Virus record (IMG/VR): IMGVR_UViG_3300035655_000051
Location: 34,232 to 98,231 of that record
DNA length: 64,000 bases
Direction: 5' to 3' (one strand)
Source: a virus
Taxonomy: Duplodnaviria > Heunggongvirae > Uroviricota > Caudoviricetes
Shown here: positions 10,255 through 34,974 of the stretch, piece after piece
Layout of the letters: every line of letters starts with the position of its first letter
Numbering within the stretch: position 1 is the stretch's first letter
Made by a program: the position numbers and the translations under genes
The notes under the pieces: model-generated
The model's input: the letters and a program-made list of their open reading frames with translations, nothing else
What the model was told of the DNA's origin: nothing
Database searches by the model: none

Positions 10255-10256
10255 TT

Positions 10257-17933: not shown

Positions 17934-18206
17934 TTACAGTAACGACCGACAAACAAGACATTTTGCCGTGCCAACAAACATATCATCAGTCCAATGTTTA
18001 CTATGGTTGTCTTCTTCGATTCGGTAGTATTCTCCAACTTCAGCAATCGTCACAATTTTTCCAGCAAGTTTCATTCTTTCTTCTAATGACCACTTGACTG
18101 TTATAGTATATCCGGGATTGTTATTCCGATCTCGCATATGATACTCTTCGTATTGCACAAAATTATCGATTAAACACACCTTATCCCCAACTTTGTAACG
18201 AGCCAT
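17934..18206 (-). CDS. CKSLL-tail family member 1 (ends ...CLVCRSLL)
   Basis: YKVGDKV... N-terminal module shared with 20559, 20826, 21127, 22233 and 28934; conserved C-terminal tail. Confidence 0.65.
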   Translation of the reverse strand: MARYKVGDKVCLIDNFVQYEEYHMRDRNNNPGYTITVKWSLEERMKLAGKIVTIAEVGEYYRIEEDNHSKHWTDDMFVGTAKCLVCRSLL

Positions 18207-20278
18207 TAAATCACCACTTTCAGAACTCGCTCAGTAGCCCCCTGCACCTTAACAATGAAGGAATCATGCTTCGTCTCAGAGAAGCCAACGCCAGACAGCT
18301 GGTCATCTACCGACTGAACTGCCATCTGAGAACCGAGAGCCTCAAATACTCGCTTATGCTGTAGCAGTTCTGCCTTCAGGAATTCGTTGTAGAAACCATT
18401 GGGCTTTTCAGGATTGATACAATCCTTGAGCATGAAGAAGTAGTGACGGTTGCCATTACCAGTCTGCTCATCCCAATAGTTCGGAGAGTACATGGCCACA
18501 GAAACAGGCACAAACTGATTGGAGTTCACACCCCAGATCTCGCGGGTGCTAGTAGAACTGGGCAGCAGCTCTTTGATAGAGAACTTGCCATCCTTCAGCG
18601 TGACTTTTGCCACGGCGACATCCTGACCCTGATGCAGTGGCTTATCATAGTTAAACGAGTAGATGTTGCCGTCGAATTCAATCTCGGCACGGAAACCAGT
18701 TTTACCACCACGACTAGCAAAACATCTCACATAGAAGCTGTACTCGCCTTCCTTCATCTTTTTGATATCAGGCCATGTAATATTTTCGACCGCAGCTTTA
18801 CCCTGATTAGGACGAGTGATATCCACATCCAAGCGGCCATTAGTACGAGGATTCCAACAGTTGCCGAAGTAGATGTGATTCTTATCGGGTTCAATGCAAT
18901 GAGCATCCTCATCATTTGCATCGTACTCACCCGGCACATCGTTCCACTGAATCGAGAAACGCAGCACACCGTCCACTTTACCGCCAGCAGCCTTAACGTT
19001 TTCGCGAATATCACTGTCTGTCATATTACCGGTATACGCCCAACTGAAACCATTAGGCCACTTGAACATACTCGGCGCATTCTTATCCTGCGGAGCAATC
19101 AGAGACATCATATTCTTCTCGAAACGATTCTCCATGAATAGTTCCAGCCCAGTCGCAGTCGGCAACACATTTTTGATGAACTTGTCAATGCTGATTTCCT
19201 CTGCACGGTTAAACTTCTTGGGATCAATCGCAACAGTCTTAGCCATTGCCTCAAACGGATTTGTAGCACCAGCAATACGAGGAGCGGCATCACGGTTGCA
19301 GAACAGGATATTGTTTGCGGTGATATCGTCCAGAGTAGCAAACCGACGACCCAGACTGTTCATATAACCCAGCTCGGTGACAGTCTTCTGTGCATCTTCC
19401 AACATCTTCTTGGTGAAAATCGCCTTGGGACGCTTATAGTTTGCGGGAGCGACAACCTTCTCAAAAGCAGTCACAGCGGAATCCACATCCATGCCTTCGC
19501 TCAGATTGATAAGAAGGGCGCCGATAGCGGTGTTACGAATACGAAGCTGCGCCGCCGTAGCATATGTAGGAGCAAGCCATACAAAGGCAAGCTTTTCATT
19601 AACAGACAGCTTGTCATAATCAATCTTATCGTGCTTAAACTCCTTTACAGACCGCTCAAACTCCTTGCCGCGATACAGACTATTCTGAGCAATCAGCTCT
19701 AGCACAGTATCAACAGCCTCCATGGTTAGCTCTTCCAGAGAACGCTTAAACACGTTTGCGGAGTCACGCCACTGTGCCATCTTGGTAGCTACGTCATCTC
19801 CACTGGTAATAAAACGCTGCGGAATCTTTACTGCGAAATGATCCCAAGTATGTACATCCTTGTGGTTTTCATCGTACTCGTAGTTCATCTCGGTGCCGAA
19901 CATGTCCCCAGAACCGATCATATTGCGACTGACAAAGTACGGATTCACAATGGCGCGGCTCTTTACATAGGCGGCCAGTGCATCAACAACAGGCTGATAT
20001 TTGGCAGACTTTGCATCGAAATCCCAGATGGAAATCAAATTATAATTCTTGTCAAACGCCACCAACTTGCCGATATTCTTTACAAAACGGCGGCAGCAGG
20101 AACAATCGTACTCGCGCCGCTTACGGAACAGCTCATTCGTGCCAGCCGGGAAGCTGTCAAGATACAGATTGTACAGTTCATCCTCGTCAGCGTCAGTGAC
20201 AAACAGGGGATTCTCACTCTTCACCATCTCATTGAAGTGGTCCTGCAGCAGCGCACGAAATTTCTTGAAATCAGACAT
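18206..20278 (-). CDS. large hypothetical protein (690 aa)
   Basis: Uninterrupted protein-like ORF; no motif recognised by eye. Confidence 0.7.
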   Translation of the reverse strand: MSDFKKFRALLQDHFNEMVKSENPLFVTDADEDELYNLYLDSFPAGTNELFRKRREYDCSCCRRFVKNIGKLVAFDKNYNLISIWDFDAKSAKYQPVVDALAAYVKSRAIVNPYFVSRNMIGSGDMFGTEMNYEYDENHKDVHTWDHFAVKIPQRFITSGDDVATKMAQWRDSANVFKRSLEELTMEAVDTVLELIAQNSLYRGKEFERSVKEFKHDKIDYDKLSVNEKLAFVWLAPTYATAAQLRIRNTAIGALLINLSEGMDVDSAVTAFEKVVAPANYKRPKAIFTKKMLEDAQKTVTELGYMNSLGRRFATLDDITANNILFCNRDAAPRIAGATNPFEAMAKTVAIDPKKFNRAEEISIDKFIKNVLPTATGLELFMENRFEKNMMSLIAPQDKNAPSMFKWPNGFSWAYTGNMTDSDIRENVKAAGGKVDGVLRFSIQWNDVPGEYDANDEDAHCIEPDKNHIYFGNCWNPRTNGRLDVDITRPNQGKAAVENITWPDIKKMKEGEYSFYVRCFASRGGKTGFRAEIEFDGNIYSFNYDKPLHQGQDVAVAKVTLKDGKFSIKELLPSSTSTREIWGVNSNQFVPVSVAMYSPNYWDEQTGNGNRHYFFMLKDCINPEKPNGFYNEFLKAELLQHKRVFEALGSQMAVQSVDDQLSGVGFSETKHDSFIVKVQGATERVLKVVI

Positions 20279-20558: not shown

Positions 20559-20816
20559 TCACAACAATGATTTGCAGCAAAGCGGTTTAGCCGGCTCAAG
20601 CATTTCATCACTCCATGACCAAAGACCGAATCCTTCTAAAACATATGTAATGTAGCAATGTGAAACCGTTGTAATCTTACCAGCGTAACTACACATAGCA
20701 CTATTAACTCCGGGACTAAATCCCCATCTTGTTCCACTTACCATTTTGTAACTTCCGGACTCATGAAGATCTGGGCGGACTCTAACTTTGTCGCCGGGTT
20801 TATACTTGTATTCCAT
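20559..20816 (-). CDS. CKSLL-tail family member 2 (ends ...PAKPLCCKSLL)
   Basis: N-terminus MEYKYKPGDKVRVRPDL... and conserved tail. Confidence 0.65.
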   Translation of the reverse strand: MEYKYKPGDKVRVRPDLHESGSYKMVSGTRWGFSPGVNSAMCSYAGKITTVSHCYITYVLEGFGLWSWSDEMLEPAKPLCCKSLL

Positions 20817-20825
20817 TTCAAATCC

Positions 20826-21110
20826 TCACAACAAACTTTTGCAAATCAAGTTCTTTGGACGATCAAACATTTCATCTGTGTAATAATATGTTTTTCCATC
20901 CTCAAGAATTTTGTATCGACCGTTTGCCTTGTGAGAAATATGTACAATTTGTCCACGATAACCTACTTGCCCACGTCCACTCCATGACGTCTCAATGCCA
21001 TTGGCATCCGGTTCTGGACCAGATCTCATGTAATAAACTGTTCCAGATTGAAGATCTTCCCTGACGCGAATTGCTTCTCCATTTTTATATTTGTATTTGC
21101 TTTTCGACAC
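20826..21110 (-). CDS. CKSLL-tail family member 3 (ends ...RPKNLICKSLL)
   Basis: N-terminus KYKYKNGEAIRVREDL... and conserved tail. Confidence 0.65.
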   Translation of the reverse strand: MSKSKYKYKNGEAIRVREDLQSGTVYYMRSGPEPDANGIETSWSGRGQVGYRGQIVHISHKANGRYKILEDGKTYYYTDEMFDRPKNLICKSLL

Positions 21111-21126: not shown

Positions 21127-21399
21127 TCATAATAGACTTTTACATGTAAACGGTTTTTTAGATTCTTCGAACATTTCATCTGTCCAATATCTGGAGCTTT
21201 CTTTTACCCTGTAACACATTACATTCCCACAACAATCATAACTCTCGATTGTTACTTGTTTCCCTCGAAGATTTTCCATAGAATGAATAGCAATAATGTC
21301 ATCATATGGAGTTTCTCCTGACAACATCTTGTATATTTTACGATCTGATAAATCTTTTCTAACCGTCACTTTATCTCCGGGTTTAAACTTATAGTTCAT
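21127..21399 (-). CDS. CKSLL-tail family member 4 (ends ...SKKPFTCKSLL)
   Basis: N-terminus MNYKFKPGDKVTVRKDL..., YWTDEMF, and conserved tail. Confidence 0.65.
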   Translation of the reverse strand: MNYKFKPGDKVTVRKDLSDRKIYKMLSGETPYDDIIAIHSMENLRGKQVTIESYDCCGNVMCYRVKESSRYWTDEMFEESKKPFTCKSLL

Positions 21400-21402
21400 A
21401 GT

Positions 21403-22218
21403 TTATTCTCCTTCAAACCAGTCGGAAACATTCTCAGCGACTTCATCAAGTTTTTCCTGATCCATTTTGATATATCTCATCGTAATACGTTGGTCGCTGT
21501 GATTAAATTTTGTTTGAAGAATATTCAAGATGTTCGCTCCATCAACTGTACCCTCGGCGCTTTGTAATGCTGCCATAGCATAAGTTTTACGCATACTATG
21601 AGTGGATAGCTCAATGTCCAAACCGCACGCCTTACCAGCTTTCTTCAAAAGGTTGCTCACCGATCTAACGTTAAGCTGTCCACCTTTCTTGCTCTGAAAA
21701 AGAAGCGTGTCACGGTCAATTCGAAAACTAATTGCCTGATAATATTCTCTTAAAGCTTCTTTTGCCATATGAGAAATTTTACACACGTTTCGCTTGCCGG
21801 TCTTCTGCTCGATCAGCTCAACATGATCTTTTACATGAGCGTTCTCATAATAAACATCAGCCGTTTTAAGCTTCAACAAATCGCCGCATCGAACACCAAT
21901 TGAACAGCCGAGAATAAACATCGTTTTGTTTCTAAGCGCGATTTCTTCAGATCCGTTAGACCCAAGGTACTCAACAATCTTCTTGAAATCTTCCTTTGAC
22001 TTGATAGGATCTGCCGGGGTTGGCTTTCTGCGCCCATCCTTGAGATAAAGACTATCCGTCCGACGAGGTTTCCGTGCTTTTTTCGTTGCAGTGGCACTTT
22101 TAACTGCCTGCTGAATAATTCGTTCAATATCGTCCTCTGTAACGACGAGTTTTGCAGGCCGATCTTCAACTGGGAAAAGAATGGTTTTTTGTGCCACTTT
22201 CTTTGCGGTTTCTGCCAT
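21403..22218 (-). CDS. tyrosine site-specific recombinase (phage integrase family)
   Basis: C-terminal catalytic region ...ELSTHSMRKTYAMAA...MRYIKMD has the R...HxxR...Y arrangement; 271 aa. Confidence 0.75.
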   Translation of the reverse strand: MAETAKKVAQKTILFPVEDRPAKLVVTEDDIERIIQQAVKSATATKKARKPRRTDSLYLKDGRRKPTPADPIKSKEDFKKIVEYLGSNGSEEIALRNKTMFILGCSIGVRCGDLLKLKTADVYYENAHVKDHVELIEQKTGKRNVCKISHMAKEALREYYQAISFRIDRDTLLFQSKKGGQLNVRSVSNLLKKAGKACGLDIELSTHSMRKTYAMAALQSAEGTVDGANILNILQTKFNHSDQRITMRYIKMDQEKLDEVAENVSDWFEGE

Positions 22219-22232
22219 TAAAATTCACTCCT

Positions 22233-22496
22233 TTACAAAAGACTTTTACATGTAAGTGGTTTTGGAGACTCGAACATCGTGTCAGTCCAATAATGGCTAT
22301 CCTCACAGAGCGTATAAACACCGCAGATTTGGCATTCGATTGTCATAAGTTGACCACGGTGTCTTTCCATATCTTTATTAACTCCCGGATCGCAGCCATA
22401 ACTTTCTCCGCTTTGCATTGGATATTCTGCGCCGGCTGTCAAGTCTTTCCGAATTCTTACTTTTTGTCCAATTTTATATTTGTAATCCATAATCAA
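22233..22496 (-). CDS. CKSLL-tail family member 5 (ends ...SPKPLTCKSLL)
   Basis: N-terminus DYKYKIGQKVRIRKDL..., HYWTDTMF, and conserved tail. Confidence 0.65.
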   Translation of the reverse strand: MIMDYKYKIGQKVRIRKDLTAGAEYPMQSGESYGCDPGVNKDMERHRGQLMTIECQICGVYTLCEDSHYWTDTMFESPKPLTCKSLL

Positions 22497-22771
22497 TCTC
22501 TTTTCTAAATTGTGAGTAACAGTTTGGCTGGAAGAACATTTGCGAGATAATTTGGAGGGATCTTTGATCCCGGAAGCATTGTCGAGTAAATGTTCTGATG
22601 GCCAATGAGTCGCAGTGATTGCAGCCGCGATCTCCAGCTCTGCTGGGATTAGGCTGCAGAACGGAGACTCCGCACTTGCGAACTAATTTGATCCATAGCT
22701 CAGGAGGGCGAGGCTGCCAACCTCAGGCAGCCCATGGAGCCCGTATGAGCGTGCTATGGTATTCTTCATAA

Positions 22772-22788
22772 CCGTCGGTCATCCGGCA
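22772..22788 (+). repeat. hairpin motif copy B (CGTCGGTCATCCGGCAG)
   Basis: 7-bp stem CUGUCGG/CCGGCAG with a 4-nt loop on the plus strand. Three copies in the window (22772, 24638, 36978). Confidence 0.5.
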
Positions 22789-22836
22789 GCTCGCGACGTA
22801 AAACGCCCGATATTCAAAAGAGATTACAATATATAA

Positions 22837-23175
22837 TTACTTGGATTCTTTGTCCTGTTTTCGCAGTTCATCAACAAGACATTCCAAACAGCTCTGTAGA
22901 GCGTCGTGTCCGGCCTCAAGCATTGCCTGATGAATATTCACTTCAAAATCACACAAGAGATCTGCACATAAGCTCATATCCTCTGCATCGATTTCTTTGA
23001 TGCCAAGCTCCTTGATTGCGCTTGCAACGTCGGAAGGCCCCCAATAGACCATTGCTCTGTGGTCGTCGATATCCAACAGGTCAACTGGACACCCGATGGA
23101 TTCCTCTACGACACTTGCCGCTTGATCGAGCAATTCAACTGGAGTGCCGCCATCTCTACACATCATTTCAATCAT
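22837..23175 (-). CDS. small acidic protein co-transcribed with the RT (112 aa)
   Basis: Its start overlaps the RT stop (ATGA); acidic and Cys-containing; no motif recognised. Confidence 0.5.
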   Translation of the reverse strand: MIEMMCRDGGTPVELLDQAASVVEESIGCPVDLLDIDDHRAMVYWGPSDVASAIKELGIKEIDAEDMSLCADLLCDFEVNIHQAMLEAGHDALQSCLECLVDELRKQDKESK

Positions 23176-24410
23176 TAGAAAACAACTCCTTCTTTTGGTT
23201 TTAAGTCAGCTTTGAGCATTGCCATCATATCAACATGATACTTTTCGTTGTACCGAGAAATCACCGTGTCGACCGATTCTTTTTCTACCATACGGTAGTA
23301 ATTCAGCCTGCCATTAAACTGCTGCAGGTCTTCAAGATCCCACGTTTTTCCTTCTTTCTTGCAGACGATGTAATTAGATGCCATCTTCTTAAAGTCCTTA
23401 AAATTGCGCCATCCGACTGTGATATCGTTATTGGCATTCCACATCAGACCGAGCATCCAGTTTTCGCTCGAATGCCGATTACCATAATGCGTTTTTTCTT
23501 CATTCAAAGTAAACGGAGCATTGATTGCATCCAACATCTCTTTGATGATATCCTGCATTTCCATCGGGTCAAAACTCAAATAGCAGCTGATGGTGATATC
23601 GTCTGCATATCTGGTGTATGTAAAAGTGCGAGAAATGCCGTCTTTCATGGTATATTTGTAAGAAAGCTTCTTATTTAACATATAATCAAACGGGATCATC
23701 ATAACGTTCGTGATCCACGGACTGATTGGCGTTCCCTGCGGAAGACCGCCGTTCAAGAAGCACAGGCGCATCGCTTTAGTCAGCTGGTTGTATCCATTTC
23801 GATCCTTCATAATGAGAGAAAACGGATAAATCTTGCTGAACATGCCGTAGATAAACTCAGGAGTGGAGCTCGGGAAGAATCCATGAAAGTCAAACTTGAC
23901 AGCCCAGTTGTTTTCATAGGTGACGATCTTTTCTTTCCCAGTCTCACGATCTTTTACTGTATATCTGTGTCCCGCCTGATGCTTTTTAATTGCACTCAGA
24001 GTGCCGCGCCCATTGATATATGCGTGTGCTGCCGTGTGATAATCAGCAATCATGAAACTTTTTAACAGCGTCCGCAACTCAACCAACGCATCGCTCAGTT
24101 CATTGTTCGGTGCATCAATTGGACGAACGCCACCAGTCTTCTTAGGAATTTCGAAGTGATAGTAATGCGTCGACAGGTCACGTACCGCTTCAAGACGGGC
24201 GTATTTCTGATTGAATTCCGTAAGCCGTGTAATCATATTGGTAACGTTTGTAATGGCTACGAGACGATCATTCAACCCATTACGCTGTACAGTTCGAGTA
24301 GAAGTTTCATCGCCAGCATATTTTAACTGGTTCACGTCAACGACTCCGCTAAGGATTTCATCAAACGTAATCTGCCTTGTTCTCGGCGGATTCCAATAAG
24401 TAACGTACAT
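23175..24410 (-). CDS. reverse transcriptase (retron/group-II-like, YADD type)
   Basis: RT motifs FEIPKKTGGVRPIDAP (1/2), LPQGTPISP (4), TYTRYADDITIS (5), FTLNEEKTHYG (6/7). 411 aa, no endonuclease domain. Confidence 0.85.
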   Translation of the reverse strand: MYVTYWNPPRTRQITFDEILSGVVDVNQLKYAGDETSTRTVQRNGLNDRLVAITNVTNMITRLTEFNQKYARLEAVRDLSTHYYHFEIPKKTGGVRPIDAPNNELSDALVELRTLLKSFMIADYHTAAHAYINGRGTLSAIKKHQAGHRYTVKDRETGKEKIVTYENNWAVKFDFHGFFPSSTPEFIYGMFSKIYPFSLIMKDRNGYNQLTKAMRLCFLNGGLPQGTPISPWITNVMMIPFDYMLNKKLSYKYTMKDGISRTFTYTRYADDITISCYLSFDPMEMQDIIKEMLDAINAPFTLNEEKTHYGNRHSSENWMLGLMWNANNDITVGWRNFKDFKKMASNYIVCKKEGKTWDLEDLQQFNGRLNYYRMVEKESVDTVISRYNEKYHVDMMAMLKADLKPKEGVVF

Positions 24411-24435
24411 ATGTTTACCTCTTCTAAATCGTGAT

Positions 24436-24679
24436 CTAAATGGTGGTTTGTATGCTCAGGGAGGTGCCTTCGACGGGACGTCTTCCTGCGAGTTTGCGTT
24501 TTGAGCTCATTTCCGGTACGTGTCTACGTTGATTATTTTGATCGACGAATCAGCATACCTGCAGAGTCGACGTACGCCGCATGCGATCACACGCCTCGGT
24601 TTTCCGGTGGGATGTGTATGATCTTACCTTTACGAACCTGTCGGTCATCCGGCAGGACTGTATATTTCAACAGTAATTC
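24436..24679 (-). ncRNA. candidate retron-like msr/msd non-coding RNA upstream of the RT
   Basis: About 245 nt of non-coding DNA bounded by a 9-nt inverted repeat (ATCACGATT at 24680-24688 and AATCGTGAT at 24427-24435). The second repeat sits just before the RT RBS, as a1/a2 repeats do in retrons. Contains palindromes around gcatgcggcgtacgtcgac. Confidence 0.3.
24638..24655 (+). repeat. hairpin motif copy A (CTGTCGGTCATCCGGCAG)
   Basis: Same 18-nt hairpin as at 22772 and 36978. Copies A and C share about 100 nt of extended similarity. Confidence 0.5.
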
Positions 24680-24702
24680 ATCACGATTTTTTTATTTATT
24701 CT

Positions 24703-25377
24703 TTATGCAGCCGTAACGTTAAAAGTGTACGGATTTGCAACGATCATTTTCTTCAAAGGTGCGATATTGGTCGCGAAATTGATAAAGTTCGTAACCGCCA
24801 AACAACACACGAAACGAACAGTCGGGGCGAGACCTTGAACGATGCCACATGCAGAAACCGGAGTGCCAGCCTGCGCATCTTCATGAGAGAAGTTCATAGA
24901 ATTCCATAAATTCTCTCGGTCTTTTTCCTTGCTCCAATCCGCTGCCCAGCACTGTGCATCATGGAATCCAGTGCGGACATCAAACACGCCCTTGATGTTC
25001 GGGTTGTACTTGTTCGCTTCCATGAACTGCTTGCGAATTTCGATGTTGTCGACCGCGAGGAACACATAACCGCGAATCATCTCGCCCTGCCAACCATTCG
25101 GCTTCAGAACGATTTCATCTTTGGCATCAGGATTGATGGCACAGATAATATCGCGAACCGCCTCGACTTTTGGAGCTTCAATATTGTTGGCGAAGAACAT
25201 CTGGTTGACGATATTCTTGCTTTCAACCTCGTCCATATCCCACAGCGTGAAATTCTTCAGACCATACCGTGCGAGAAGTTCCGCCACGGTAGAGCCAACC
25301 GAACCACAACCAATAATGTGGATCTGGCCGCTGATATCATCGGGGTTGAATACCATTTCAAGCTTACTCAGATTCAT
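24703..25377 (-). CDS. E1-like (ThiF/MoeB-family) ubiquitin-activating-type enzyme
   Basis: IHIIGCGSVGSTVAELLARYG (GxGxxG Rossmann), DMDEVESKNIVNQ and KVEAVRDIICAINP match the ThiF/E1 adenylation-domain pattern. Confidence 0.75.
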   Translation of the reverse strand: MNLSKLEMVFNPDDISGQIHIIGCGSVGSTVAELLARYGLKNFTLWDMDEVESKNIVNQMFFANNIEAPKVEAVRDIICAINPDAKDEIVLKPNGWQGEMIRGYVFLAVDNIEIRKQFMEANKYNPNIKGVFDVRTGFHDAQCWAADWSKEKDRENLWNSMNFSHEDAQAGTPVSACGIVQGLAPTVRFVCCLAVTNFINFATNIAPLKKMIVANPYTFNVTAA

Positions 25378-25392: not shown

Positions 25393-26289
25393 TTAATTGT
25401 CATACGGAAAACAGCTGGAATTCCAGCACGTATCAAGATCTTCTGGATTCTCCTTGTAATAATTGACCAATGGATATCGAGTCTCAGACACTTCATTGAC
25501 TTTCGGAGCCGCTGCACCAGTTACCGTCTTGATTTGCGGCACTGGCGTTTGCGTGGCAACTGTTTGCGGGTACGTTTTTTGCGGCGTAACTGCTTTACCA
25601 TAGTAGGTGCCTGCTCCATAAGCTCCGTAATTTGCGACTGTGCTTGCGACATATACAGGGCGCTTTCGAACCGTTTTGTCTGCATCTTCGAGAAATCGAG
25701 TCGAGTCAAAATCTCCAACAGTAACCTTGACATCGGCTCCCTCATAGATGACATTGTCGGCCAGATCAATGACGCGAACATTGTACTGCCGCTTCTTGTT
25801 CCAGATCATAAAAATCTGATAACTCGTCGGCTTGAGTCCGTCAATGAATCGCCACTGATCCTCCATATCGCGGCTGCTCGGCGTTACACCGAAATCGACA
25901 TGGCTGTGTCCCTGAAATCTCAGGTTGCGAATCGTTTCAACAGGCAGCGCCTGAAACCACTTTGAAAATTCTTCCTGATCGGTGTCTACGGTGGTGCCAG
26001 TTACAGTCTGAGGATACAGCAGAATTTTGGTAATCTGAAAATGCGTCTTATCGATACGATTCACGATGCCGCGCCATGCAACCTCACAATCGAAGTGATC
26101 AATCAACGCAAACATCTGAGAATACGCTTCATAGGTGAAATTCACCTCGACAGCATCCTTCTTAACAGACGCAAAATTCTTCTTGTATGAGAAAGAATCC
26201 GTCTTAACCCTACCGGTCTTATACAGCTCCTGAACAAATTCACGTGCCATATCTGCTACAACCTGCTCCGTGATATTAATGGGTTTCAT
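25393..26289 (-). CDS. JAB/JAMM (MPN+) metalloprotease-domain protein
   Basis: QGHSHVDFGVTPSSRDMED matches the JAMM motif HxH-x7-S-xx-D; 298 aa with a Thr/Pro/Gln-rich C-terminal half. Confidence 0.65.
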   Translation of the reverse strand: MKPINITEQVVADMAREFVQELYKTGRVKTDSFSYKKNFASVKKDAVEVNFTYEAYSQMFALIDHFDCEVAWRGIVNRIDKTHFQITKILLYPQTVTGTTVDTDQEEFSKWFQALPVETIRNLRFQGHSHVDFGVTPSSRDMEDQWRFIDGLKPTSYQIFMIWNKKRQYNVRVIDLADNVIYEGADVKVTVGDFDSTRFLEDADKTVRKRPVYVASTVANYGAYGAGTYYGKAVTPQKTYPQTVATQTPVPQIKTVTGAAAPKVNEVSETRYPLVNYYKENPEDLDTCWNSSCFPYDN

Positions 26290-27793
26290 CTTCAGCGACC
26301 TCCTTCTTTACTGCTTCTGCTGGTGCTGCTGCGTCCTTTTCGTTCTTGAGAATGTCAAACACTTCTGCCACCGTGTACAGATTACCCGCGTTATCCTCGA
26401 TACACTTGCGAGTTTTGATATAGGATTCGTCAAACAAATCATACATGAGATCGCTTACAACGGTGCCATCCTTCCAGTTGATGGATGCGCTTGAACCAAT
26501 AATCGTAGTCAGGACGCCAATGTAATCGTGTTTTACACTAAGCGCATTGAGCATCTCTCGATAACCGCTATAGCACGCATGCCGATCGATATGAGGCTGA
26601 CGAATACGATCCTTCATCAAATCAGAGCGACCTTGCATATCAGAACCACGAACTGCTTCAACCTTGCAGCTGGAATACAGTCGCCATTCACAGTAGGTGC
26701 GAATAGCGAACCGATGTGTCTTCCAAATTGACACAAAGAAATCTTTCGTAAGTTCCGTGTCATACGGCGAACGCTGAAAAATGTAGCTTCGACTATTTGC
26801 CTTTTTCTCAACACAAGTGCGGAACTCGCCCTCATCACAATCGTTCAGCGTGCCAACATAACCAATAGAGATTCGATCACTGTTGGAGTCAAGATAAACC
26901 AGCGTCTTGCAGCGCTTCAGGAAATTAACAATTGCAGCTTCGTCATCCTCAGTGCAGCAAGCACGGTCCATGATCATAGTGAGTTTAAATTGAGCTTCTT
27001 CAAGACTTTTATTTCTCTCACGGATATCGTTATATTTACTTTCAATATCATCTTGAATACTACGAATGTATCGTTCCTGCCGAGAAATTTCGTTGGCGTA
27101 ATCCTTCTTGCAAAATCCCTTCAGAGCACCACGCAACTTCTTACCATAGAAATCGCCGGTCTCGTATGCCTTCTCCATGTATTTGCCGAAAGCTTTGTTG
27201 TCCTGATCATAAAGAGTACGCAGCATCGCCTTCTCATCATCAGTCAGCGGCTGATCAGCGAAAAACCACGGCATCAGGTTTGGCAAACAACTCGCTGCCA
27301 TGTGCATGGCCTGAATCAGATTCTTCTTAGCACAAACAACGACAACACCCTGCTTCTTTTCATTCTGATATACATAGACATTGCCATTCTTATCGATGTA
27401 CTTAGCTGCGACATCCATGATCTTCCAACCGGCAGCTTCGTAATCCGCATTGTACTTCTTGAACTCAGAAATAATGGCGTCTGCTTTCTTATCGTCGATC
27501 GTCTGAAACATGATGCCAAATTTCATCTGATTGAAAGCGTTATCTTCATGAACGAACATGTCCTTAGTGAACTTTTCGTCGTCGCCCATATAGAAATGTT
27601 GGCAATCAATAATTGACTGAATGCGATGTCCTCCCGAAATAGAATGCTTGATACGGTCATCATTGATCAGTACGCGCAGTACGGACAACATCACATTATC
27701 GTTGAGATTGCTATTGTCGCAATTCAGAATCAACGGATATGCTTCGTCGCAATCTCTCGAACCGATCTTGCTGGAATAAGCTGTGAAAGCCAT
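26276..27793 (-). CDS. large hypothetical protein (505 aa) in the E1/JAB operon
   Basis: Protein-like ORF overlapping the JAB gene start; function unknown (could be an E2-like or target component). Confidence 0.6.
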   Translation of the reverse strand: MAFTAYSSKIGSRDCDEAYPLILNCDNSNLNDNVMLSVLRVLINDDRIKHSISGGHRIQSIIDCQHFYMGDDEKFTKDMFVHEDNAFNQMKFGIMFQTIDDKKADAIISEFKKYNADYEAAGWKIMDVAAKYIDKNGNVYVYQNEKKQGVVVVCAKKNLIQAMHMAASCLPNLMPWFFADQPLTDDEKAMLRTLYDQDNKAFGKYMEKAYETGDFYGKKLRGALKGFCKKDYANEISRQERYIRSIQDDIESKYNDIRERNKSLEEAQFKLTMIMDRACCTEDDEAAIVNFLKRCKTLVYLDSNSDRISIGYVGTLNDCDEGEFRTCVEKKANSRSYIFQRSPYDTELTKDFFVSIWKTHRFAIRTYCEWRLYSSCKVEAVRGSDMQGRSDLMKDRIRQPHIDRHACYSGYREMLNALSVKHDYIGVLTTIIGSSASINWKDGTVVSDLMYDLFDESYIKTRKCIEDNAGNLYTVAEVFDILKNEKDAAAPAEAVKKEVAEDETH

Positions 27794-27936: not shown

Positions 27937-28176
27937 TTAGTTCATACCAGTCGCATTGTCGTGCTTGGAGATGGAGGCCAGATACACCTCATCGCCGACG
28001 CCCAGCTCAGACAGCGGAGTGTTCAGCTGTGCCACCGTCAGAATGCAGCCATCCAGAGTGCTCTGGCCATTGGCGTAGTTCACGCCATGCTTTGCGAACA
28101 CGTCCTTCGGGGTCATGCTGGTAGCAACAACGTCCTCGATCTTGTCGTCATTAGTGGTAACCCAAATCTTAATCAT
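27937..28176 (-). CDS. small protein (79 aa), candidate beta-grasp/ubiquitin-like component
   Basis: MIKIWVTT... small protein at the head of the E1/JAB operon; ends ...NATGMN. Ubl assignment is speculative. Confidence 0.4.
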   Translation of the reverse strand: MIKIWVTTNDDKIEDVVATSMTPKDVFAKHGVNYANGQSTLDGCILTVAQLNTPLSELGVGDEVYLASISKHDNATGMN

Positions 28177-28273: not shown

Positions 28274-28696
28274 TTACTCGGCGTCTGCGTCCTCACCATC
28301 GATAGTGATTGCAGCATTCATGGCAGCCTCATCAGCGTTGATGGACTCCATAGCGGCTGCGATCTGCTCCTCGATCTTGGTGCCGCGAACAATGGTCAGA
28401 CCAATCATGTCGCGAACCCACTCCTTGATCTCTGCCTCAGACTTCATGCCAGCAGGAACAGGACGGCTCAAAACGGCAACCTTATCGCCAGTGACTGCAT
28501 CCTGAGCAAAAGCCACGCCGAACTTGCTGATATCATCCTTAGAAGCAACAGCAATGGCGCTCACAAGCTTCTTCTCCTTGCCCTCGCCCTCATACAGCTT
28601 CAAAGCCTCGGGACGGAACTTCTCGACCTTCTTCAGGGTAGCGACATCGTATGCGGAAGTGACGAACAGGTTGTTGAACTTAACGATTGCTTTCAT
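28274..28696 (-). CDS. hypothetical protein (140 aa), probably highly expressed
   Basis: Start moved to the ATG after RBS AAAGGAGAAAAC (MKAIVKF...); acidic C-terminus. Confidence 0.55.
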   Translation of the reverse strand: MKAIVKFNNLFVTSAYDVATLKKVEKFRPEALKLYEGEGKEKKLVSAIAVASKDDISKFGVAFAQDAVTGDKVAVLSRPVPAGMKSEAEIKEWVRDMIGLTIVRGTKIEEQIAAAMESINADEAAMNAAITIDGEDADAE

Positions 28697-28933: not shown

Positions 28934-29158
28934 TCACAGAAGTGATTTGCAGGTAAGTTTTACTGGACACGGCTCCCAAAATCTTTGCGGGCACCAAGTA
29001 ATCGTTGTTTCTCCACTTGTAAATGGGTCTAACATCTCTACAACTGGGTAAGCTCCATCAAATCTTACGATGCGCCCTCTTTTGTTGCGATTCACATCGT
29101 TTTCAGACACTTCATTGCCGATTCTAACTAATTGCCCAACATGTAAATCGTATTTCAT
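28934..29158 (-). CDS. CKSLL-tail family member 6 (ends ...CPVKLTCKSLL)
   Basis: Start taken at MKYDLHVGQLVRIGNE (ATGA overlap with the upstream gene); conserved tail. Confidence 0.6.
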   Translation of the reverse strand: MKYDLHVGQLVRIGNEVSENDVNRNKRGRIVRFDGAYPVVEMLDPFTSGETTITWCPQRFWEPCPVKLTCKSLL

Positions 29159-29412
29159 ACAACTGTCTCCTCTGTAATTGTCCATGTGTGACGATAACCA
29201 GCAGGAACGTCTGCAACACGCGCTCCCCAATCGTCAATATAGCTATCTCGCATACTTTCTGAATCATTTACGTCGTGTTCGTTCAAACACTCTAAGAACA
29301 AATCCTGCATCCTATCTGCCGCGTCTGCATGATTCGCATAAACGTGTTCAACACAAGCGAACGCCCATTCGTAAGAATTTTCGACACAGTCATGAAGAAC
29401 ATAAACCTTCAT
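29155..29412 (-). CDS. hypothetical protein (85 aa)
   Basis: Start at MKVYVLHD...; the long ORF-track version 29155..29679 overlaps a neighbour. Confidence 0.45.
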   Translation of the reverse strand: MKVYVLHDCVENSYEWAFACVEHVYANHADAADRMQDLFLECLNEHDVNDSESMRDSYIDDWGARVADVPAGYRHTWTITEETVV

Positions 29413-30378: not shown

Positions 30379-30464
30379 TGGTGCGCCCGGCGGGACTTGA
30401 ACCCGCACGCCATCTCTGGCAGAAGATCTTAAGTCTCCTGTGTCTGCGATTCCACCACGGGCGC
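30379..30464 (-). tRNA. tRNA-Leu (anticodon TAA), type II
   Basis: Acceptor GCGCCCG/CGGGCGC + A + CCA, anticodon loop CTTAAGA, long variable arm, T-arm GCGGGTTCAAGTCCCGC. Confidence 0.8.
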
Positions 30465-30772
30465 ATATAAAAGAAAATCAGAAACAGCCAACATTCGTTT
30501 TACGTTCCAGTTTACTGGCTACCTGAAGGGTATTCGTCCGACAGCTACTCGGCTTGCACCTTATTCCCCTTCCTATTTGGCTCAGTATCATTTACCGGTG
30601 TGATACCTGTCGTTTGCCAATGAACGGCCAATCCCCGATCTAGCTGGAACAACTGATTTTCTATTCCTCATTTAGTTAGAGACCTAATGAGTAAAGATGT
30701 CTACCTACACCGGTTGTGGACGGACTTACCCGGCTGGATTTCTATGTAGGAGTCTCAAACCGTCGCACACAA

Positions 30773-30847
30773 TGGAGCAGCGAATGGGAGTCGAACCCAC
30801 GCCATCGACTTGGAAGGACGATGTACTAGCCGTTATACGACCGCTGC
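30773..30847 (-). tRNA. tRNA (probable Gly, anticodon TCC; one anticodon-stem mismatch)
   Basis: Acceptor GCAGCGG/TCGCTGC + CCA, T-arm GTGGG-TTCGACT-CCCAT, anticodon loop CTTCCAA. Confidence 0.55.
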
Positions 30848-30966
30848 ATATAAACCCGGCTTACTAAGCCTTATTGCCACAGCATACGCCATGGAGCCGG
30901 GAATAACAAGGAAGAAAAGAGGTAAAGCCCGAATAGGAGGAATGAGACCCTATAAGCGGGCATCGG

Positions 30967-31035
30967 AGTGACTGGTTGGACTTGAACCAACGGCGCGCAG
31001 TTAGCTTGCTGCTCTACCATCTGAGCTACAGTCAC
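30967..31035 (-). tRNA. atypical short tRNA-like gene (68 nt, anticodon arm and variable loop about 4 nt too short)
   Basis: Perfect acceptor GTGACTG/CAGTCAC, canonical D-arm GCTCAGATGGTAGAGC and T-arm GTTGG-TTCAAGT-CCAAC. Only 19 nt remain for the anticodon arm plus variable loop, with a possible GCAG/CTGC stem and 8-nt loop. Confidence 0.4.
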
Positions 31036-31188
31036 ATAAAATACTCGGCTTACAAAGGTCAACTGCACTCTTTCAAGTGAGCCGAGAATAATTGACGAAG
31101 AAGTATAAAAATGAACTCCCCCTTTCGGGGTGGTATCTCGCACAGGCGCGGCCGGATCTGACCGCTAAAGATCCTACCCATACGAGAT

Positions 31189-31275
31189 TGGTGCTCACAA
31201 GAAGACTCGAACTTCCACGTCATAAAAGACAAGGGACCCTAAAACCCTCGCGGCTGCCAGTTTCGCCATGTGAGC
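31189..31275 (-). tRNA. tRNA-Leu (anticodon TAG), type II
   Basis: Acceptor GCTCACA/TGTGAGC + A + CCA, D-arm GGCGAAACTGGCAGCCGC, anticodon loop TTTAGGG, long variable arm, T-arm TGGAAGTTCGAGTCTTCT. Confidence 0.6.
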
Positions 31276-31412
31276 ATATCAAGAGCAGGGTTGCGTACCT
31301 GCTACGACTTGTTCAGTCACGGTTGTCTTATGTTTGGAGGGACACGAAAACAACTAATCCGATATAAAGGAGAAATATGAGAATACGAGGGACGCAATGA
31401 CCAAACGCCCCA

Positions 31413-31498
31413 TGGTGCAGCTAGTCGGATTTGAACCGACACGGATTTTCACCAGCAGATTTTGAGTCTGCCGCGCCTGCCTATTACGCCATAGCTGC
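31413..31498 (-). tRNA. tRNA-Leu (anticodon CAA), type II
   Basis: Acceptor GCAGCTA/TAGCTGC + A + CCA, anticodon stem GCAGA/TCTGC with loop CTCAAAA, long variable arm, T-arm CGGTTCAAATCCG. Confidence 0.8.
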
Positions 31499-31537
31499 AT
31501 ATTGCTCGTCTTTCCGAGCCGCCACTGCTTGCGCAGG

Positions 31538-32449
31538 TTACTTCATATCGTTCAGTACAGGGATGCTGGCATCACCGCCGACATAAGTAGGAAGCTTACC
31601 ATCCCACTTTTCATACATCTGCTGCTGAATCAGCCGGTCGCTCAGAGACTCAGAGATGATTTTATTCGCCTCGGCTTCTGCGTTCGCCTTGGAAATCTTG
31701 GTCTGGTTCTCAATCTCCTGCGCCTCGTCATTGCGCTCGGCCACAAAGGACTTGTTAATAGCAGCCTGAACAGATGCATCGTCGTACTCAATGCCATCCT
31801 TCATGCCAAGGACAGTAATCGTGATACCGCGCTCTGCAAAATACTCAGTCACATCCTTGCGTACATACTCCATGATCTCGGCCTTCTTCTCAAGGATCTC
31901 ATTCATGGTGTACTTAGCGCACATTTCAACAAAGTCAGCTTCAACACGAGCACGGATTTCAGTATCCATAATCTCGGAGAGCTGCTTGTTGTTGTAGGAA
32001 TACAGGAACTTGACTGCATCATTTTCAGTATAGATCTGAGCAGAACAGTTCATACCGACGGAGAAGCCAATAGACTCCTTGCTTTCGGCAGAGATGGACT
32101 GGTTGATAGTGCTGGTGCCACTATCCTTGCCCTCGGACCATTCACGAGTAACAGGAGTTCTATTGACGACAACCAACATGTTATCCGGAACCCAAGTACC
32201 AATGATGTCAGTCGGCGACAGATGTCGCTTCGAGTAAGTAATGTACACCTGCTTGGCTGCAACCTTTGCCTCGGCGAGCATTTCCTCACTCTCAAAGGAC
32301 GCCTGTTTTCCCCCGCCCTCAGAGAGTGAAATCAGAAATGCAGTTTCATGAGGTTCGATTGTATACACCTCTTTCTTGGTGCATCCCGTAAATGTCAGCG
32401 CCATCACAATTGCACACGAAACCACGAAAATCTTTTTGAACTTCTTCAT
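31538..32449 (-). CDS. SPFH/band-7 (prohibitin-like) domain lipoprotein
   Basis: Signal peptide plus lipobox (LTFTGCT), then an SPFH-like core with a coiled-coil, Ala/Glu-rich C-terminal half. Confidence 0.6.
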   Translation of the reverse strand: MKKFKKIFVVSCAIVMALTFTGCTKKEVYTIEPHETAFLISLSEGGGKQASFESEEMLAEAKVAAKQVYITYSKRHLSPTDIIGTWVPDNMLVVVNRTPVTREWSEGKDSGTSTINQSISAESKESIGFSVGMNCSAQIYTENDAVKFLYSYNNKQLSEIMDTEIRARVEADFVEMCAKYTMNEILEKKAEIMEYVRKDVTEYFAERGITITVLGMKDGIEYDDASVQAAINKSFVAERNDEAQEIENQTKISKANAEAEANKIISESLSDRLIQQQMYEKWDGKLPTYVGGDASIPVLNDMK

Positions 32450-32461
32450 TCGTTCCTCCTT

Positions 32462-32686
32462 TTAATTTTTGAATAGAATATATACCACAGCTCCAATCGC
32501 AAGCGACAGAGCTACAGACACCGAAAGAGCCAATTCGCTGACACGTCCGTAAAGAGAACTTATACTTCCTGTTGCCATTTGAACAAGCGAGATGTGCCGT
32601 AGAAGTTTCTCAAAAATGTCATCGAGACTCAAAAACGAAACAGCCGATGCGCAGGCTGCCAGCAATAAATCTTTATGTTTTTTCAT
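32462..32686 (-). CDS. small membrane protein (74 aa)
   Basis: Two hydrophobic segments. Confidence 0.45.
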   Translation of the reverse strand: MKKHKDLLLAACASAVSFLSLDDIFEKLLRHISLVQMATGSISSLYGRVSELALSVSVALSLAIGAVVYILFKN

Positions 32687-32757
32687 AACTTACCACCTCA
32701 GAATCCTGTCTCAGCTTTTTGCCACAAATTGGGTCGTGATGACAAAACTCACACATT

Positions 32758-32943
32758 TTATTCGTCCTCGACTTCTTCGTCATCTACTACGTAAATCGCG
32801 TCAATTTCCTCATTGTCATCTGGGCTAATTTCTTCAGAATTATAAGCCTCTTCCGCAATCTCTTTTGCCTGTTCTTCAGACTCCGCTGGAACCCACATGG
32901 CATAAGACTGTCGTGTCCAAACGCTTACAAGGTATCGCTTCAT
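32758..32943 (-). CDS. small acidic protein (61 aa)
   Basis: Short ORF ending DDEEVEDE. Confidence 0.4.
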   Translation of the reverse strand: MKRYLVSVWTRQSYAMWVPAESEEQAKEIAEEAYNSEEISPDDNEEIDAIYVVDDEEVEDE

Positions 32944-32947
32944 GAAA

Positions 32948-33265
32948 TCACTCCTCTACCTTAAATACCATGTAGTACATGTGATTATCTTCACCGTTAT
33001 CAACCGCAGCTCCGATAGCATACTCGGGATACGGACACAAAGCACACCCACAGAAATCTGCATAAGAATCAGTGTTAATTCGCGTTGCGTTTTCATACCG
33101 TGCAGCTTCATCGCTTGGCATATTATCAAAGAAGCTCTGATAACTACGAGCAGCAAAATCAATCGCATCACTTCTCGACTGAAATGCTTTATCGAAACTT
33201 ACTGATTTGTAGATGTCAACTTTTTCGTTGGTATAATCGCTTACGACAATGTACATCTGAATCAC
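32948..33265 (-). CDS. hypothetical protein (105 aa)
   Basis: Protein-like ORF. Confidence 0.5.
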   Translation of the reverse strand: MIQMYIVVSDYTNEKVDIYKSVSFDKAFQSRSDAIDFAARSYQSFFDNMPSDEAARYENATRINTDSYADFCGCALCPYPEYAIGAAVDNGEDNHMYYMVFKVEE

Positions 33266-33933
33266 TCCTTCTCAAAGATATCAGTGTACTTGATGTACAG
33301 CTTACCGTTATGATAGTAGGTGTTGTATTCGCACTGGGTCACATACCACCAAGCCTTTTTATGCCCCGCCAGCAGGAGGTCGTGCAGATGATAAGTTTCT
33401 TTGTAGTTTTCATCTACATACTGCCGGAATGTAAGCTCGTCGATATCGTCGCTTTCTTGAACAATAGCTGAAATCTTGCTAACTTCGTATTCGTCCATAG
33501 AATCGTCCACAACGAATACCACTCGAACGATTTCTTTACCCCGGCGACAAATCTTGTAAAGCTCCTCTGCACAATGCAAATGATACACAACTCTATCAAA
33601 CTGTTCGAATGGAAACATTAAAATTCCATCATCATGATCAAAATCATAATAGCTCGTATGCAACTCAATCTTGCGACCAAGCTCTTTACACACCGAAAAG
33701 AATCCTGTCCACCACGCCTGATGTTCCCACCAGTGATAAAGTGGGTCACCGCCACCAGACACAGATACCCAATTGCAGTCATTACATTCGTTTTTCAGAA
33801 CATGCTCCAACTGCATATAAGAAGAATACTCGTCTGTCGGCGTCATCTTGAGCTTGTTATTGCGGACGATACACTCAGGGCAGCTGTAATGGCAACCAAA
33901 GTTCGTGATGATGCTGAGATATTTGTCATCCAT
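33262..33933 (-). CDS. radical SAM enzyme (small, activase/QueE-like)
   Basis: NFGCHYSCPECIVRNN gives the CxxxCxxC cluster-binding motif; SGGGDP glycine-rich SAM motif; 223 aa. Confidence 0.65.
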   Translation of the reverse strand: MDDKYLSIITNFGCHYSCPECIVRNNKLKMTPTDEYSSYMQLEHVLKNECNDCNWVSVSGGGDPLYHWWEHQAWWTGFFSVCKELGRKIELHTSYYDFDHDDGILMFPFEQFDRVVYHLHCAEELYKICRRGKEIVRVVFVVDDSMDEYEVSKISAIVQESDDIDELTFRQYVDENYKETYHLHDLLLAGHKKAWWYVTQCEYNTYYHNGKLYIKYTDIFEKE

Positions 33934-33939
33934 TTTGAT

Positions 33940-34194
33940 TTACTCCTTGTTAATGGTAAGCTGAATAGACCAATAATCTCTGTCGTTTCCAGTGTAAATC
34001 AAAGAGTCCAAAACTTCTGAGTGCCGATCGCACTCGTGATAGATTTCTGGACCATGGCTCTGAAGCCATCCAGACTCCACTCCGAACTTTTTAACGATTT
34101 CTCCTTCATCAATGACTGCGATGCCATCGGAAGCCTTATCTTTCGCTTCTTCAATCATCCATTCAACGATTTCTTTGATATTCAGATTTGCCAT
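33940..34194 (-). CDS. hypothetical protein (84 aa)
   Basis: Protein-like ORF. Confidence 0.5.
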   Translation of the reverse strand: MANLNIKEIVEWMIEEAKDKASDGIAVIDEGEIVKKFGVESGWLQSHGPEIYHECDRHSEVLDSLIYTGNDRDYWSIQLTINKE

Positions 34195-34218
34195 GATTCA
34201 TACCTTCTTTCAAAATGT

Positions 34219-34296
34219 TACTAAAAAATGGTGGGCCAGGAGGGATTTGAACCCCCGATCAAGCAGTTATGAGCTGCCGGCTTTAACCAGACTAAG
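34219..34296 (-). tRNA. tRNA-Met/fMet (or lysidine-modified Ile) (anticodon CAT)
   Basis: Acceptor GGGCTAG/CTGGCCC + A + CCA, D-arm GCTTAGTCTGGTTAAAGC, anticodon stem GGCAG/CTGCT with loop CTCATAA, T-arm GGGGG-TTCAAAT-CCCTC. Confidence 0.8.
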
Positions 34297-34675
34297 CTAC
34301 TAGCCCAAGAGAGGAGGATTTAACCATGTAACGACACCAGCTGAGTACATTGCATTCGACTTACGAACTTTGCGAAATGCAACTTACAGCATCAGTGGAT
34401 ACAACCAAAGCGTCTTAACATCCTGTCCTTTGGTGTCCATCCTCAAAGACTGCCCTTTTAAATTCACTCTCCGCCAGCTTGGGCACCAACTGACTAGACC
34501 ACTTTCGCAGGTCATCCATTCGCCTACTCATGTTGTCACCAGACCTTCACTCCACGAGGAGCTACCCCGTCGCAGTCTGTTCGCACAATTTCGGTCAAAG
34601 CGTTATGAATGCATTGCATCCACGGTGGAATTGCGCCACCCCAGCGACCTCGCACTACACTACGCTGCCACATCG

Positions 34676-34725
34676 AACCTAGCTGGAACCCAACAGAATC
34701 GAACTGTTGTACGACCATCGGCTCC
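34676..34725 (-). ncRNA. tRNA-like minihelix (acceptor plus T-arm only)
   Basis: Minus strand GGAGCCG-ATGGTCGTAC-AACAG-TTCGATT-CTGTT-GGGTTCC-A: canonical T-arm and a 6/7-paired acceptor stem, but no D-arm or anticodon arm. Confidence 0.35.
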
Positions 34726-34829
34726 ATATAAAGCAGGGTTATCGTACCTGCTCGGCATTTTCAGCCACGCGGTTTCGCCTAATGGAAACCGTTTTTATAC
34801 ACACAATAGGCACAGGTAGAAAGGAAAGA

Positions 34830-34906: not shown

Positions 34907-34974
34907 CTAATGCTCGATATATGCCGGTCTTTCCCGGCTGTCAGTCCCAAGGACAATGGAGGAAAGTAGATAGC

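Follow-up and report, generated by a model that had tools for sequence, protein, structure and literature searches.

A phage-borne retron-type reverse transcriptase with several template-like RNA genes next to a putative ubiquitin-like conjugation cassette

What might a reverse transcriptase do in a tailed phage when its gene is bounded on both sides by structured non-coding DNA and preceded by genes reminiscent of ubiquitin-like protein conjugation? This question is raised by a locus in a 64,000-nt stretch of a Caudoviricetes genome (IMG/VR record IMGVR_UViG_3300035655_000051, positions 34,232 to 98,231), which was analyzed as a whole and is called the window below. An original prediction, made from the sequence alone, described the locus as a compact two-gene element, consisting of a reverse transcriptase (RT) and a 112-aa acidic protein (ORF2), and likened it to a retron or a defence-associated RT with a non-coding RNA (ncRNA). 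The second part of this proposal was borne out, the RT being of retron type and the upstream flank resembling a retron msr-msd gene, but the compact two-gene element was not, as ORF2 is restricted to one lineage and conservation extends over the entire operon, from a 140-aa gene to the RT. We consider it probable, with some reserve, that the locus is a phage-borne retron-type system of new architecture, in which one RT is served by multiple templates and a ubiquitin-like (Ubl) conjugation cassette takes the place of the effector. The genes and RNA genes of the cluster are given below in their order on the minus strand, followed by ncRNA-3, which lies 12 kb away from the RT locus.

28274-28696 (-): conserved protein of ~140 aa, first gene of the cluster, recognized by comparative alignment
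27937-28176 (-): 79-aa ubiquitin-like (beta-grasp-type) candidate with the C-terminus K-x-D-N-A, adjoining the E1/JAMM context
26276-27793 (-): 505-aa two-domain protein
25393-26289 (-): JAMM/JAB metallopeptidase, 298 aa, with the motif E...HxHx7SxxD
24703-25377 (-): ThiF-family E1-like adenylating enzyme, 224 aa, assigned by profiles
24426-24689 (-): ncRNA-1, msr-msd-like, between E1 and RT (a1 24680-24689; candidate branching G 24679; hairpin 1 24657-24674; hairpin 2 24637-24656; variable msd ~24441-24636; UUUAG 24436-24440; a2 24426-24435)
23175-24410 (-): retron-type RT, 411 aa, YADD, assigned by profiles, PDB matches and motifs
22837-23175 (-): ORF2, 112 aa, an acidic, lineage-restricted accessory (isoelectric point 4.1; 26 D+E versus 8 K+R)
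22494-22826 (-): ncRNA-2, msr-msd-like (a1 22816-22826; G 22815; shared hairpin-2 16-mer 22774-22789; UUUAG, then a2 22494-22504)
36700-37025 (-): ncRNA-3, remote template gene (a1 37017-37025; G 37016; hairpin-2 motif 36980-36995; UUUAG, then a2 36700-36708)

The RT frame carries all of the motifs that had been read in it, namely FEIPKKTGGVRPIDAP, GGLPQGTPISP, YTRYADDITIS, LNEEKT, and LGL. Its motif 4 is QGxxxSP and not the form found in diversity-generating retroelements (DGRs), again as predicted, and RVT_1 (3e-13) was the sole match in Pfam, where no endonuclease or maturase domain was matched, in agreement with the endonuclease-free RT first described. In PADLOC, the best 25 of 60 families are all retron RT models (E-values 2e-37 to 2e-20), with RT_II-A at the top (2e-37). 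The best NCBIfam model is retron_St85_RT (3.9e-43), followed by weaker matches to group II RT/maturase (4e-16), Drt2 (2e-10), and Drt3a (4e-6), and the PDB sequence matches are retron RTs in 12 of 12 cases (Ec83, Ec78, Ec67, Ec86, Kva2). Seven residues are invariant across 25 RT homologues with 44-72% identity, the five catalytic ones (D174, Y268, D270, D271, and K306), which are all kept, together with H144 and G321. As judged from these profile and PDB matches, the RT is of retron type, and neither of DGR nor of group II type.

The flanks of the RT-ORF2 pair that are free of open reading frames (ORFs) measure 292 nt (24411-24702) and 340 nt (22497-22836), in line with the ~290 and ~340 nt initially estimated. 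The inverted repeat that brackets the upstream flank is real, perfect (100% complementary), and placed like the a1/a2 repeats of retrons, but it is 10 nt long rather than 9. By itself, this repeat lies within chance, as about 50 9-nt inverted repeats followed by a G and spaced by 150-450 nt occur across the window, and a simple inverted-repeat scan alone is too noisy for finding such modules; its weight comes from its context and from the comparison with related loci. The palindromes pointed out in the same flank exist as well (gcatgc, cgtacg, and gtcgac), but carry no weight.

Within the window, the comparison begins with a 16-mer, CTGCCGGATGACCGAC, which is identical in ncRNA-1 and ncRNA-2. 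A search of the window with this 16-mer returned a third site, at 36980-36995, with the same layout around it. The three copies, all on the strand of the RT, follow a common plan: a1, an unpaired G, AAT plus one base, hairpin 1, hairpin 2 (which includes the 16-mer), a variable stretch, UUUAG, and a2. The a1 and a2 sequences are unlike between copies and their complementarity is kept within each, with AAATCGTGAT / ATCACGATTT in the first copy (10 bp), TAATCTCTTTT / AAAAGAGATTG in the second (11 bp, made of 10 Watson-Crick pairs and a terminal U·G wobble), and CATCGAGAT / ATCTCGATG in the third (9 bp). In the RNAfold predictions, each copy has a closed a1/a2 stem and the two hairpins (z-scores -2.1, -3.7, and -2.7). 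Hairpin 2 is identical in the three copies, save one loop base in the third, despite the differing neighbouring sequences, which makes it a candidate recognition element for the RT. Folding and comparison agree with the original placement of an msr-msd-like ncRNA with a1/a2 repeats in the upstream flank. The downstream flank, which had been taken for mere structured DNA 3' of the genes, appears instead to be a second template gene, the third copy being 12 kb off.

BLAST of the three ncRNAs gave no second copy or target of any msd in the window, and nothing thus points to self-targets, antisense targets, or repeats of the DGR kind; a promoter and terminator scan gave no excess over shuffles. 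The a2 of ncRNA-2 overlaps the start region of the next gene. Downstream of ncRNA-3, and separated from its a2 by ~220 nt of AT-rich DNA, lies a gene for a 500-aa protein (34975-36477, minus strand) with a weak Bro-N match (6e-5, just under the Pfam cut-off).

The same modules are found in related loci, which were drawn from IMG/VR (L002-L020 and L165-L174), from GenBank (MT835544, L001), and from assemblies with the RT homologues P0021, P0040, P0049, P0057, P0059, P0076, and P0085 (L139-L146). At the DNA level, 50,697 phage records searched with the complete element yielded one relative, which matched in the RT gene only. All nine divergent loci that were inspected for it (L001, L018, L139, L141-L146) have an ncRNA module between E1 and RT. 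The number of modules per related locus ranges from 1 to 5, down to 44% RT identity, and the helix sequences are all different. One extra module is located downstream of the RT in each of L001, L018, L141, L143, and L146, and ncRNA-2 is kept in these five loci with compensatory changes. Four modules follow the RT in L142, for a total of 5, and L146 has two additional modules 5 kb upstream, for a total of 4.

Across 23 modules, 93.9% of the cells of the a1/a2 helix are paired, compared to 56% after shuffling and 33-50% with a slid partner, and double changes occur at all 10 pairs. The three outer pairs, which were outside the requirement of the scan, are paired in 15, 18, and 22 of the 23 modules. 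Hairpins 1 and 2 show double changes at 11 of 11 pairs (columns excerpted by hand), and when a1/a2 is taken together with the 4 pairs of hairpin 1 and the 7 pairs of hairpin 2, double changes are found at 21 of 21 pairs, with 96.6% of cells paired versus 36-45% in controls with slid partners. Of the 23 single-sequence minimum-energy folds, 15 show the two hairpins at their fixed offset, compared to 1.4% of dinucleotide shuffles. The unpaired G directly 3' of a1 is invariant (23/23), with N-A-T next to it, the L144 module having G-TTT after a1; the A-G before a2 is also invariant among the modules, and the length of the variable insert ranges from 60 to 400 nt.

The division of the ncRNA into a constant and a variable part is also visible among close relatives. 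In a sample of 18 phages whose RTs are 97-99% identical, the nucleotide diversity of ncRNA-1 is 0.02-0.04 in the msr and 0.15-0.23 in the variable part (24426-24612), that of the neighbouring genes being mostly 0.01-0.07 and rising locally to 0.14 in the 5' part of the RT gene (24229-24278). The variants of ncRNA-1 amount to 13 alleles in two deep groups, among which RNAalifold found no convincing conserved msd structure. Related phages also conserve ncRNA-3, of which L057, L076, and L092 keep only the first 67 nt, corresponding to the msr, the msd being exchanged for a different insert. A conserved msr joined to a variable msd is the pattern known for retrons, to which these RNAs would correspond by analogy.

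The second half of the proposed system is encoded directly upstream. The E1-like enzyme matches ThiF in Pfam (7e-21, over the cut-off) and E1-E2 in PADLOC (1.6e-15), and its PDB matches are UBA5, TcdA, MoeB, and MccB. The motif residues of the JAMM peptidase (E69, H128-S-H130, S138, and D141) do not vary among 9 sequences; the protein matches PADLOC JAB (0.0033), and its matches to the profiles of archaeal JAMM1 and Rpn11 (E 0.02-0.06) are weak but consistent. The 505-aa protein probably adopts a UBC/RWD (E2-like) fold, and a Foldseek search of its model against the PDB gave nothing significant. In the alignment of the 79-aa Ubl candidate, K71, D73, N74, and A75 are invariant and 5 of the 8 members end with this Ala, the window protein having a four-residue tail (TGMN) after K-x-D-N-A; its best profile matches, to SAMP2, a MoaD-like protein, and ThiS, are weak (E ~1). 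These sequence features fit a Ubl from which the JAMM peptidase would remove the tail. In L142-L145 and L168-L170, tblastn did not detect the Ubl-like protein. For the ~140-aa protein, which has no Pfam or PDB match, a homologue occupies the same position in 17 of 21 related loci (L001, L018, L139, L141, L142, L146, L147, L165-L174), and none was detected by tblastn in L143-L145.

The association of RT and cassette holds whichever of the two is used for searching. With the RT as query, the cassette turned up in every one of the 8 divergent loci, whose RTs are 44-63% identical. In each of them, three proteins are encoded directly upstream in this order, one of 441-505 aa, a JAB-like one of 163-303 aa, and a ThiF protein of 226 aa, and genes for proteins of ~135 and ~80 aa, detected by tblastn in most, not all, loci, precede these three. 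Starting from the 505-aa protein, an RT was found downstream in 10 of 10 divergent phage loci with a long enough flank. Between JAB and ncRNA-2, neighbouring features of the window overlap or lie 10-15 nt apart, which leaves no room for separate promoters. The block is unchanged between ~150-kb gut phages and a locus in an Oscillospiraceae metagenome-assembled genome (MAG), which, with a resolvase, an FtsK-like protein, and an integrase nearby, looks like part of an integrative element. Genome contigs searched with the 505-aa profile yielded a single short MAG contig, L147 (CAUDRX010000190.1, 4.4 kb), from a Peptococcaceae bin, in which the 140-aa and Ubl genes are 100% identical and the 505-aa gene 95% identical; it may be phage DNA binned with its host or a mis-binned contig, and gives a weak hint at a clostridial host. 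The combination of an RT with an E1/JAB module had been suspected to be new. In agreement with this, no description of a retron with a ThiF/JAB/ubiquitin-like cassette was found in the searchable literature, many subscription papers being outside that scope; there, the joint terms ubiquitin-like, JAB, and reverse transcriptase led to general surveys only, and retron, JAB, and ubiquitin-like together to no such system.

Several points weigh against a multi-template retron with a Ubl effector. The NCBIfam scores of the RT are under the family cut-offs for all models, so that it is not a member of any named retron family. Aligned to the Ec83 and Ec78 RTs, region X (NAxxH, between RT2 and RT3) reads AIKKH, with H144 alone kept, and region Y (VTG, in RT7) reads MLG, with G321 alone kept, this H and this G being the most conserved residues (Mestre et al. 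2020, PMC7736814). The msd of all three copies folds into several short hairpins and not into the one long hairpin typical of retrons, and Rfam, searched permissively (E up to 10) with both flanks and the third copy, gave no match beyond chance miRNA/sRNA. Priming from the G after a1 is an analogy, the branching being predicted, and the msDNA (multicopy single-stranded DNA) that the RT and ncRNAs would yield is likewise postulated from retrons. The Ubl identity relies on context, on the C-terminus, and on matches at E ~1. A 289-aa gene lies between E1 and RT in L145, and conserved adjacency is by itself no proof of common function. As for the covariation, the modules came in part from a scan demanding 7 paired bases, which makes the pairing percentages partly a product of construction, and the hairpin columns were excerpted by hand as equal-length constructs because MAFFT lost the hairpin register. 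For both reasons, the informative part is the many pair types at homologous positions and not the raw pairing percentage.

ORF2, which was central to the original prediction, has the length, the acidity, and the overlap with the RT stop that were ascribed to it, but the overlap is TAATG, of 1 nt (base 23175), and not ATGA. Its homologues are confined to the RT clade with at least ~62% identity (window, L001, L018, L141, L165-L174), and an exhaustive search of 1.84 billion proteins gave 11 cluster representatives. It is missing in L139, L143, L145, and L146, where RT, ncRNA, and cassette remain. The profile search suggested for this protein returned no family, with no match in Pfam, PADLOC, PHROG, NCBIfam, or PDB profiles, and its AlphaFold2 model (pLDDT 67) has no Foldseek match. 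ORF2 is a clade-specific add-on and not a conserved partner of the RT. In L001 (MT835544), RT and ORF2 are separated by an inserted 159-aa ORF (7241-7720) that carries the polyvalent-protein domain LPD18 (3e-14), and LPD domains are also present near the cluster in L142, L143, and L145.

Other readings of the locus have to be weighed against these data. It seems unlikely to us that two independent systems, a stand-alone retron and a Bil-like Ubl conjugation system, travel together in a common accessory island with no mechanistic link. Defence and counter-defence genes do gather in islands. Stand-alone (msr-msd)-RT cassettes are on record (Mestre et al. 2020, PMC7736814), and an unrelated 289-aa gene parts E1 from RT in L145. 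Nevertheless, two independent systems are difficult to reconcile with an order and orientation that are constant across 44-99% RT identity, non-phage context included, with spacers too short for promoters of their own, and with the fact that RT and cassette were never found apart in loci searched from either side. Even less credit can be given to the two-gene retron first proposed, with ORF2 as effector or partner and one upstream ncRNA, which we regard as improbable. ORF2 does share one base with the RT stop and accompanies the RT in the phage clade down to ~62% identity, and small proteins of type VI retrons are described as toxins; this model, however, does not account for the four loci that lack ORF2 and retain RT, ncRNA, and cassette, for the LPD18 gene that separates RT and ORF2 in L001, for the tiny size of the ORF2 family, or for ncRNAs that number three and not one.

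The way in which the templates are copied is a related matter. Class 2 defence-associated reverse transcriptases (DRTs; DRT2, DRT9, DRT10) would suggest unbranched copying, perhaps repeated across the a1/a2 junction to give long or concatenated cDNA. The a1/a2 stem does join the template ends, as template jumping needs, the msd has no classical long hairpin, VTG and NAxxH are degenerate, and 3 of 23 circularized modules have a stop-free antisense frame. We still hold such copying to be quite unlikely, as the matches to Drt2 (2e-10) and Drt3a (4e-6) are far under those to retron RTs (4e-43), the stop-free circular frame is present in 0 of 3 window ncRNAs, its overall frequency is about that of chance, and the invariant unpaired G after a1 is a retron signature; a DRT2-like endless ORF on circularized templates was rejected on the same frame counts. 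A mobile retroelement, be it a group II intron or a DGR, is scarcely credible. It would explain an RT gene with structured non-coding DNA on either side and the weak group II RT/maturase match (4e-16), but the flanks show the a1-G...a2 design of retrons. The group II intron was rejected because neither domain V nor any other group II domain was found in Rfam at E up to 10, which bears out what had been seen by eye, and because the RT has no maturase or endonuclease domain. The DGR was rejected because there is no template/variable repeat pair in the window, where the msd has no second copy, and because the leading RT matches are all retron, motif 4 being QGxxxSP.

The locus is surrounded by other genes of interest. 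At least 12 small ORFs (68-161 aa), several of them with unrelated bodies, have the same C-terminus, K-P-[LF]-x-C-[KRH]-S-L-L-stop:

22233-22490 (-): small ORF with the C-terminal tag
21127-21399 (-): small ORF with the C-terminal tag
20826-21110 (-): small ORF with the C-terminal tag
20559-20816 (-): small ORF with the C-terminal tag
17934-18206 (-): small ORF with the C-terminal tag
28934-29185 (-): small ORF with the C-terminal tag
53178-53663 (+): small ORF with the C-terminal tag
53660-54004 (+): small ORF with the C-terminal tag
54031-54294 (+): small ORF with the C-terminal tag
54504-54710 (+): small ORF with the C-terminal tag
54742-55152 (+): small ORF with the C-terminal tag
55168-55389 (+): small ORF with the C-terminal tag

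The codons of the tag differ synonymously, which indicates that it is conserved as protein and not as a DNA site, and it may be a targeting or modification tag. Several of these proteins are encoded right behind the RT, and the first tagged gene (22237-22480) is the most variable stretch among the phages with RTs 97-99% identical, its diversity of 0.1-0.3 being above that of the msd. Amid the tagged genes, directly downstream of ncRNA-2, sits a 271-aa tyrosine recombinase (21403-22218, minus strand; Pfam Phage_integrase 1.6e-17, PHROG integrase 1e-47). ORF2 (not in L146), tagged genes, and recombinase recur with the RT, and downstream of it, throughout the phage clade, in varying number and order. 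Just downstream of the tagged genes, a 690-aa protein (18206-20278, minus strand) belongs to a large phage family, PHROG 1735 (9e-258), and a 689-aa DUF8224 homologue occupies the same position in L141. The window also contains 11 tRNA genes in two clusters, 179-1764 and 30379-34916 (minus strand), for Phe, Asn, Arg, Gly, and Thr, and for three Leu, Gly, Met, and Pro, respectively; such clusters are typical of large virulent phages. In L143, a second, different RVT_1 gene (10000-11346, 448 aa) lies 2 kb downstream of the retron-type RT.

Returning to a retron-type system with multiple templates and a Ubl cassette, we can propose how it would work. The RT would bind the conserved hairpin 2, prime from the 2'-OH of the G that follows a1, by analogy with retrons, and start copying at the UUUAG beside a2, so that one RT would produce three different branched msDNAs here, and 1 to 5 in relatives. 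The RT-msDNA complexes would be the sensing or regulating part, as in other retrons, and the Ubl cascade would replace the usual toxin effector. In this cascade, the JAMM peptidase would trim the tail of the Ubl to expose ...DNA-COOH, the E1 would adenylate the trimmed Ubl, and the 505-aa protein would hand it over to a target. The conserved synteny suggests that RT-msDNA regulates or serves the Ubl cascade, and the role of the system would most likely lie in competition with other mobile elements or in counter-defence during infection. More tentatively, and with considerable doubt, a set of RT-msDNAs made from interchangeable msd cassettes might gate, scaffold, or target the Ubl/E2-like/JAMM/E1 cascade, the C-terminally tagged small proteins being possible substrates or adaptors.

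Among known systems, the 13 types of retrons (Mestre et al. 2020, PMC7736814) share the RT lineage, the adjacent ncRNA with a1/a2, the unpaired G after a1, the msr hairpins, the variable msd, and a conserved neighbouring effector module, the type II-A / St85-Ec86-like RTs being the nearest by profile score. Unlike retrons, the present system has several ncRNA genes per RT (three here, up to five in L142), one of them 12 kb away, whereas the ncRNA of the classical tripartite unit is a single contiguous gene. Its RT is ~90 aa longer than classical retron RTs and degenerate in NAxxH and VTG, its msd lacks a single long hairpin, and its carriers are large tRNA-rich phages. It also differs from the 13 types by the Ubl conjugation cassette as effector module, ThiF and ubiquitin being unmentioned in the survey of these types (Mestre et al. 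2020, PMC7736814). DRT2, DRT9, and DRT10 also use an upstream structured ncRNA as template without mobility functions, but the similarity of their RTs is much lower, and the present ncRNAs have the a1-G...a2 design of retrons and no consistent stop-free concatemer frame. The Bil system comprises BilA (Ubl), BilB (E2), BilC (JAB), and BilD (E1), and CBASS (cyclic-oligonucleotide-based antiphage signalling system) has the module Cap2/Cap3. A ThiF-type E1 and a JAMM/JAB peptidase are common to the cassette and to Bil-like systems. The cassette is not a member of either system at the sequence level: its Ubl ends in Asp-Asn-Ala and not in Gly, its E2-like protein has 505 aa and two domains, its E1 is minimal (224 aa), an extra 140-aa protein is present, and it is joined to an RT and ncRNAs and carried by a phage. 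Phage-borne retron-type RTs have been annotated before, for example in jumbo Staphylococcus phages, as noted in a preprint (bioRxiv 10.1101/2020.12.14.422802). The RTs of lytic jumbo Staphylococcus phages and of P4-like or filamentous phages, compared by RT sequence and description, are 24-27% identical to the present one, and nothing on several ncRNAs or on a Ubl cassette was found for phage retron-like RTs in the searchable literature.

Retron types are defined by their effector, and the known effectors are mostly toxins, such as nucleases, nucleoside deoxyribosyltransferases (NDT), phosphoribosyltransferases (PRTase), TIR, and transmembrane proteins. A Ubl cascade as an invariant partner, if confirmed, would add a non-toxin output to retron biology, and its coupling to a retron would join two areas of research on bacterial immunity that are currently apart. 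The searchable literature has no description, either, of a single RT that serves several dispersed template genes. Such a multi-template RT would inform on how ncRNAs are recognized, with hairpin 2 conserved and the a1/a2 and msd sequences free to vary, and would provide retron editing tools with a natural design for multiplex templates. Carried by abundant ~150-kb phages of the human gut, the system may be relevant to phage-phage and phage-host conflict in this environment.

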